Shown here one piece after another: positions 25,213 through 25,690 of a DNA stretch of 64,000 nt (position 1 is the stretch's first letter; every line of letters starts with the position of its first letter). This DNA comes from Escherichia coli (lineage in GTDB: Bacteria; Pseudomonadota; Gammaproteobacteria; Enterobacterales; Enterobacteriaceae): NCBI RefSeq assembly GCF_022846255.1, contig NZ_AP025682.1, one strand, 5' to 3'. The notes below the pieces were generated by a model that saw nothing but the letters and a program-made list of their open reading frames with translations, was not told the DNA's origin and did not search any database. Both the position numbers and the translations under genes were made by a program.

Positions 25213-25304
25213 TGATGCGATGCTGGCCTGATAAAACGCGCCAGCGTCGCATCAGGCATCGTGTGCAAATGTCGGATGCGGCGTGAACGCCTTATCCGAC
25301 GTAC
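25213..25304. repeat. REP elements (two copies) between yacG and mutT, second copy overlapping the mutT 3' end
   Basis: gatgcgatgctggcctgataaaacgcgccagcgtcgcatcaggc and gtcggatgcggcgtgaacgccttatccgac match REP consensus. Confidence 0.8.
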
Positions 25305-25690
25305 ACGCGCTTAAGCTTCGCAATTACCGGTTCATTGGCTGGCGGAAAATCATCGGCATTCAGACCGACCAGCGCCATCCACTCACCGGGTTGCCCTTCT
25401 TTACCCCACGGCTCCCCTTCCCAGCTTTCGACCAGCCAAAACCACAGTGTTATATGCCTGTCCGGGAATTCATATTCCAGTTTTTCAAATAGCGAAAAAT
25501 GTTGTGGGGTAATCCCGACTTCTTCCTGAAGTTCACGCACCACCGCCTGTTCCGGCGTTTCGCCCATTTCAACTTTACCGCCGGGAAACTCCAGTTTATT
25601 CGCCATGTGCGCATCTGCTGCGCGACGCGTTATAAAGATTTCATTGTTCTCGTTGCGAATAATACCTACCGCAATTTGCAGCTTTTTCAT
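25292..25690 (-). CDS. mutT: 8-oxo-dGTP diphosphatase MutT (132-aa ORF)
   Basis: Nudix box GGKVEMGETPEQAVVRELQEEVGI; C-terminus ...KLKRVYVG runs into the REP element. Confidence 0.93.
   Translation of the reverse strand: MKKLQIAVGIIRNENNEIFITRRAADAHMANKLEFPGGKVEMGETPEQAVVRELQEEVGITPQHFSLFEKLEYEFPDRHITLWFWLVESWEGEPWGKEGQPGEWMALVGLNADDFPPANEPVIAKLKRVYVG

Follow-up and report, generated by a model that had tools for sequence, protein, structure and literature searches.

A stop-codon polymorphism inside a REP element underlies a 132-residue MutT in Escherichia coli

The Y and Z2 palindromic units of REP/BIME elements in Escherichia coli are substrates of TnpA-REP. E. coli REPs are extragenic and carry a GTAG tetranucleotide that is needed for their recognition by TnpA-REP; the E. 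coli REPtron tolerates no mutation of this GTAG (PMC8266576). In BIMEs of the RIB/RIP type, the L linkers carry IHF sites (PMC3333891). REPs whose distance to a stop codon is below 16 nt have also been reported to reduce translation of the upstream gene, with stalling, mRNA cleavage or tmRNA tagging and lower protein levels (Liang, Rudd and Deutscher 2015, as related in PMC12306157). The protein whose gene end concerns us here, MutT, has 129 residues in K-12 MG1655 and ends in KRL according to both the genome annotation (NP_414641.1) and 23 PDB entries (1MUT, 3A6S and others), and all solved MutT structures are of this 129-residue form. A literature search found no publication that treats mutT, yacG and REP together.

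We analysed a 64-kb stretch of E. coli DNA (the window) in which mutT and a REP overlap. The initial annotation of this stretch had described a MutT of 132 residues ending in KLKRVYVG, with the last codons and stop inside a REP at about 25271-25304, had given the K-12 protein as 129 residues ending in KRL, and had noted a yacG-mutT spacer shorter than that of K-12. Each of these statements agrees with the ORF list, the REP consensus and the MG1655 sequence. The genes and repeats of the locus are as follows.

25006..25203, plus strand: yacG, DNA gyrase inhibitor, convergent with mutT (ORF list).
25204..25291, no strand assigned: yacG-mutT spacer in its short form, 88 bp, lacking a 118-bp segment of K-12 made up of a BIME unit plus a linker that contains an IHF-site consensus (alignments).
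25222..25257, minus strand: Z-type REP (consensus with 3 mismatches, 0 expected), opposite in orientation to the Y copy and forming one BIME unit with it.
25258..25270, no strand assigned: 13-nt linker between the two head-to-head REPs (from the REP coordinates).
25271..25304, plus strand: Y-type REP (GTCGGATGCGGCGTGAACGCCTTATCCGACGTAC), tail toward mutT (consensus with 2 mismatches; stem-loop with internal loop in the predicted fold).
25292..25690, minus strand: mutT coding sequence, 8-oxo-dGTP diphosphatase, 132 codons plus stop (ORF list).

The window lies in the reverse-complement arrangement of K-12, and the two share the order secA-mutT-yacG-zapD-coaE. In window coordinates the genes are coaE (23633-24253, plus), zapD (24253-24996, plus), yacG (25006-25203, plus), mutT (25292-25690, minus) and secA (25750-28455, minus). 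The position of mutT between secA and yacG is conserved in the window, K-12 and other E. coli annotations, and the counterpart of the window yacG in other E. coli is annotated as yacG in RefSeq (WP_000005042.1). The window MutT is thus like the K-12 protein in gene, neighbours, Nudix fold and equivalog score. Over residues 1-129 the two proteins differ by four substitutions (phmmer E 2.5e-85; 97% identity over the alignment). The NCBIfam MutT equivalog NF008044 scores the 132-residue protein at 244.7 bits and the 129-residue K-12 protein at 244.9 (cut-off 148), and TIGR00586 gives 228.7 and 229.9 bits, respectively (cut-off 97.9). The Nudix box GX5EX7REUXEEXGU is present as GGKVEMGETPEQAVVRELQEEVGI in the translated ORF. 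Among 55 enterobacterial MutT sequences, G37, G38, E44, R52, E53, E56, E57, G59 and N119 are invariant, Asn119 being the substrate-recognition residue of MutT. The segment that follows PVIxKL, by comparison, is 2-9 residues long and variable in sequence, against 59 other columns that are invariant in the same 55 sequences. An AlphaFold2 model of the 132-residue protein built with these sequences (pLDDT 90.5) places residues 117-130 in the C-terminal helix and leaves residues 131-132 only as a tail; the extra residues are thus predicted to prolong this helix.

At the C-terminus, residue 129 is Leu in K-12 and Val in the window, where it is followed by Tyr-Val-Gly because the TAG stop of K-12 has become TAC. 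The window features that define this change are listed below.

25304..25306, minus strand: codon 129, GTG (Val); CTG (Leu) in K-12 (alignments).
25301..25303, minus strand: codon 130, TAC, where K-12 has its TAG stop; with the preceding G, the REP tetranucleotide GTAG becomes GTAC (alignment, codon view).
25295..25303, minus strand: three added codons, TAC GTC GGA (Tyr130-Val131-Gly132), which are untranslated REP in K-12 (alignment of the window, K-12, AR_0372, O157, ST131 and A25).
25292..25294, minus strand: the stop codon in use, TAA, supplied by the REP stem motif GGATAAGG (direct sequence reading).

In the codon view of the alignment, the K-12 coding strand reads AAA CGT CTG TAG and continues, untranslated, with GTC AGA TAA GGC G; the window reads AAG CGC GTG TAC GTC GGA TAA and continues with GGC G. 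Base-level alignment of the window with K-12 revealed no insertion, deletion or breakpoint at the 3' end of mutT, only substitutions. Point substitution, not rearrangement, explains the longer C-terminus. The repeat itself provides both termination sites. Placed in the mutT frame, the REP consensus GTAGGyCGGATAAGG contains two stops 9 nt apart, first TAG and then TAA, and the mutT stop of K-12 is the TAG of the conserved GTAG tetranucleotide. Since the second in-frame stop follows so closely, loss of the first lengthens the protein by three residues only.

These features suggest the following scheme. In Escherichia, the end of mutT adjoins a REP oriented 5'-GTAG-GTCGGATAAGGCG...-3' on the coding strand. 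Alleles of the K-12 type terminate at the first stop, TAG, and yield a 129-residue protein ending in KRL. In the window allele, with TAG changed to TAC and the preceding CTG to GTG, the ribosome would read Tyr-Val-Gly from the REP stem and terminate at the second stop, the TAA of GGATAAGG, giving 132 residues and the ending KRVYVG. We hold, with high confidence, that the 132-residue MutT reflects a natural, probably near-neutral stop-codon polymorphism inside a REP, and that the shorter spacer is the result of an unrelated loss of a BIME unit.

How widespread the two stops are was assessed in 5,426 complete E. coli genomes by megablast with 30-nt queries, a match being accepted only through an exact 28-mer across the stop site. 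The counts below accordingly sort genomes by stop site alone, the upstream reading frame forming no part of the classification.

Window allele, TAC: 206 genomes.
O157:H7-type allele, TAT: 564 genomes.
ST131-type allele, TAT: 937 genomes.
AST240-type allele, TAT: 144 genomes.
AR_0372-type allele, TAG: 1,377 genomes.
K-12-type allele, TAG: 1,817 genomes.

Sense-codon alleles, which correspond to the 132-residue form, thus occur in at least 1,851 of the 5,426 genomes (34%), and TAG alleles, corresponding to 129 residues, in 3,194 (59%); 381 genomes were unclassified. RefSeq assigns mutT a length of 399 bp in A25, ST131 MB1341, O157:H7 F6321, AST240, Ec-U4-19 and MS1266, and of 390 bp in K-12, AR_0372, 10159 and 2018-05-2CC, and both lengths carry the MutT annotation. 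Clusters of proteins at 90% identity likewise hold members of both lengths. The exact window protein is itself in NCBI (WP_137501328.1 / BDH34825.1). The initial annotation had named reference MutT proteins of the same length and C-terminus as grounds for refutation; the 399-bp genes of A25, ST131 and O157:H7, together with WP_137501328.1, are such references. On the question of lineage specificity, which it had also raised, the extension is confined to certain lineages of E. coli but is common rather than unusual. That at least 1,851 complete genomes carry it suggests that the 132-residue MutT is a working 8-oxo-dGTPase with antimutator function, and it is on this abundance that we base the view that the change is neutral or nearly so.

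To establish the direction of change, we drew on a pattern scan that took one genome per species and returned at least 80 loci; E. fergusonii and Salmonella are absent from the matches listed, and four of the 80 listed loci (L014, L043, L061, L064) were omitted as chance or distant matches outside Enterobacteriaceae. Among the matches listed, MutT ends in KRM-TAG in E. albertii, KRL-TAG in Escherichia sp. E1V33, RRL-TAA in E. whittamii and KRF-TAA in Escherichia sp. MOD1-EC7003, so that all four of the other Escherichia species have a 129-residue MutT with a REP directly after the stop. The 129-residue form is therefore ancestral in the genus and the 132-residue form derived within E. coli. 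The opposite polarity, prompted by the ST131- and O157-type strains, was rejected, since the four other species stop at the first site.

In all 132-residue alleles examined, loss of the stop goes with GTG at codon 129, and codon 130 is either TAC or TAT. This common GTG and the restriction of the difference to TAC or TAT are in keeping with a single origin of the 132-residue haplotype. The tail residues differ between alleles (VYVG, VYVE). The 132-residue form occurs in strains of phylogroups B2 (ST131) and E (O157:H7), and the 129-residue form in strains of A (K-12) and B1. Such a split is unlike that expected of a single recent derived change and may reflect recombination or an old haplotype kept in balance.

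We then compared the repeat at the mutT end with the properties of described REPs. Consensus copies are overrepresented in the 64-kb window (3 observed, 0 expected from 100 shuffles). The Z copy (25222-25257, minus) and the Y copy (25271-25304, plus) match their consensus sequences, are opposed across a 13-nt linker and lie between convergent genes, as in an E. coli BIME. The repeat is also multi-copy in character: a 351-bp query spanning it has a median of 7 places per genome among complete E. coli genomes. The region 25195-25345 (151 nt) folds at -61.1 kcal/mol (z = -4.1), and both the minimum-energy and centroid folds contain the imperfect palindrome with internal bulge that is expected of a REP, GUCGGAU..GGCG....CGCC..AUCCGAC.

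Two properties set the window copies apart from typical E. coli REPs, which are extragenic and carry GTAG. First, the Y copy spans the mutT stop and codons 129-132 and overlaps the ORF by 13 nt (25292-25304); the K-12 copy overlaps mutT by 4 nt, namely the last base of codon 129 and the TAG stop. Second, the tetranucleotide is GTAC in the window Y copy and GCTG in the Z copy. At the mutT end, it is GTAT in the O157 and ST131 types, intact GTAG in K-12, AR_0372, E. albertii and Escherichia sp. E1V33, and TTAA in E. whittamii and Escherichia sp. MOD1-EC7003. The window copy is a REP with a mutated GTAG, recognisable as a REP in its other properties. Given the intolerance of the REPtron to GTAG mutations, the GTAC and GTAT copies, and the GCTG Z copy as well, are probably no longer TnpA-REP substrates.

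Several further structural details were observed. In place of the canonical REP stem, the Z-REP region is predicted to form a longer hairpin that joins CTGATGCGATGCTGGC (25212-25227) to GCCAGCGTCGCATCAG (25240-25255), a single position being mismatched. In the window allele, GUGUA of codons 129-130 (25301-25309) pairs with UGCAC of the inter-REP linker (25262-25266), lengthening the REP stem. The K-12 copy beside mutT is degenerate (GTCAGAT/ATCCGAC, loop TTTT). Elsewhere in the window, consensus REPs lie at 63290-63323 and 7818-7851; the former begins 9 nt past the stop of an ORF at 62562..63281 (plus), making it another REP no more than 15 nt from a stop.

Since the two alleles terminate at different points with respect to the hairpin, the question arises whether the polymorphism has regulatory consequences. 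Termination at the TAG, at the hairpin's foot, or at the TAA within the hairpin, 9 nt further into the REP stem, could set different MutT levels through ribosome-hairpin collisions, by way of stalling, trans-translation or mRNA 3'-end stability, and lineages would then differ slightly, in a tuned manner, in their A:T-to-C:G mutation rate. On this reading, the two in-frame stops of the REP would make such switching cheap and recurrent, and the independent GGA TAA ending of Citrobacter amalonaticus is in line with this. We consider the reading very unlikely. It draws on the report that REPs less than 16 nt from a stop lower translation, a distance class to which mutT belongs because its stop lies inside the REP; its likeness to the translation-regulating REPs of PMC12306157 is one of distance to the stop. 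In the predicted RNA fold, which contains a stable REP hairpin, the mutT TAA is placed at the upper end of the outer stem's 5' arm and in the internal loop next to it. The predicted fold energy of the stop-plus-REP segment also varies by allele (window, -30.8 kcal/mol; AR_0372, -30.2; K-12, -19.9), and a scan of the window spacer found no intrinsic terminator-like site between the convergent mutT and yacG. However, the REP starts 0-9 nt from the stop in both allele classes, which places both of them within the <16-nt class. In addition, each of the two alleles is found in very many genomes, and the tail shows the variation (VYVG, VYVE) to be expected of unconstrained sequence.

The spacer bears on a second alternative, in which a REP-associated rearrangement at the mutT 3' end (insertion, deletion or replacement of a REP), one of the two causes offered by the initial annotation for the C-terminus, produced both the new C-terminus and the shorter spacer. 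The MG1655 spacer measures 215 bp (111434-111648), compared to 88 bp in the window. An extra 118 bp in K-12 comprises one Z-REP, one Y-REP and a linker with TATCAATGAGTTA, which, read by eye from the alignment, fits the IHF consensus WATCAANNNNTTR and is a putative IHF site. The K-12 spacer thus resembles a RIB/RIP-type BIME with an IHF-binding L linker; the window shares its locus and flanking REPs but is without the 118-bp TATCAATGAGTTA unit and is therefore a plain two-REP BIME. Among the matches listed, the spacers measured in other Escherichia species are of the long or a longer form (183-562 bp), so the short spacer arose by deletion. What survives of the duplicated unit differs among short spacers, which keep one half or the other: GCCAGCG in the window and 2018-05-2CC and GGACAGCG in AR_0372 and O157. 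This implies at least two independent crossovers between tandem units. Where the spacer is short, one BIME unit of a tandem pair would thus have been lost, probably when the repeated units recombined.

The rearrangement reading gains some plausibility from the plasticity of this spacer, which across Escherichia measures 87-562 bp, reaching 1,519 bp where IS1397 is present (among the matches listed), and in which the 118-bp BIME unit is variably present. In strain 10159 (NZ_CP074991.1, L007, 1-977, corresponding to window 25204-25291), an IS621 element of the IS110 family lies in the mutT-yacG BIME beside the mutT stop; REP sequences are known targets of IS621 (PMC1525189). In strain MS1266 (NZ_CP135959.1, L091, 5277-6620), the same BIME holds a frameshifted IS1397 of the IS3 family, with a spacer of 1,519 bp. 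IS1397 inserts into the palindromic units of BIMEs. The mutT-yacG spacer has thus been struck by two different REP-targeting IS elements.

At the genus level, too, REPs appear to have remodelled the gene end. Among the loci listed, the mutT and yacG stops overlap (TTAA or TTAG), with no spacer, in 26 of the 71 evaluable Enterobacteriaceae species; these species, which include Buttiauxella, Cedecea, Pluralibacter, Trabulsiella and Yokenella, lack a REP and have a different MutT tail. In Escherichia, Citrobacter, Enterobacter and Klebsiella, the interval between the two genes is occupied by genus-specific palindromic repeats. Enterobacter (L016, L018, L042, L065 and others) has its own palindrome, TAGGCCTGCTAAGCGAAGCGCCAGCAGGC, immediately adjacent to the mutT TAG. 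Several Citrobacter MutT proteins end in QAG, encoded by CAG GCC GGA TAA, among them those of three C. amalonaticus loci (L054, L077, L086). C. amalonaticus thus uses the REP-internal TAA independently of E. coli. Taken across the family, these comparisons indicate that the mutT end has been remodelled repeatedly by repeat elements and that the protein tolerates the change. One locus in this set, L087 (CACSKA010000010.1), is titled Chryseobacterium sp. 18061 and holds an enterobacterial mutT-yacG much like that of L083 (Citrobacter sp. 18056, from the same study); it is probably a contaminated or mislabelled assembly.

Within E. coli, however, two observations make a common rearrangement extremely improbable. 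Aligned base by base, the mutT-adjacent REPs of K-12 and the window are collinear, the two alleles differing by substitutions only, and the REP occupies the same position in the four other Escherichia species. Moreover, protein length and spacer length assort independently. The combination of 129 residues with a long spacer is found in K-12, 129 with a short spacer in AR_0372 and 2018-05-2CC, 132 with a long spacer in AST240 and Ec-U4-19, and 132 with a short spacer in the window, A25, ST131 and O157. As all four combinations occur, the two polymorphisms are unrelated, and the idea that a short spacer goes with a long protein was rejected. Of the two explanations first offered for the C-terminus, the stop-codon difference (TAG to TAC) therefore stands and the REP rearrangement does not.

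A false read-through created by a sequencing or assembly error in the window has a negligible chance of being correct: no complete genome is identical to the window, yet its exact 30-mer across the stop site recurs in 206 independent complete genomes and its exact 132-residue protein is already in NCBI (WP_137501328.1 / BDH34825.1). The closest complete E. coli genome matches the window at 99.3% over 12 kb (20000-32000), and the best complete-genome match to the 351-bp query (yacG 3' end, spacer and mutT 3' end) is 98.6%. With no nearer complete genome, the window lineage is absent from the RefSeq complete genomes, although its MutT is in NCBI.

The yacG-mutT spacer emerges from this analysis as a hotspot of BIME copy-number change and of insertion by REP-targeting IS elements. 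Should MutT abundance depend on where the stop lies with respect to the hairpin, the polymorphism would bear on natural variation in mutation rate. Overall, the polymorphism is ordinary and matters little. The allele for the 132-residue MutT is genuine, common and present in existing annotation, and it is neither an error nor the product of a rearrangement; K-12 should not serve as the sole reference for the length of MutT.
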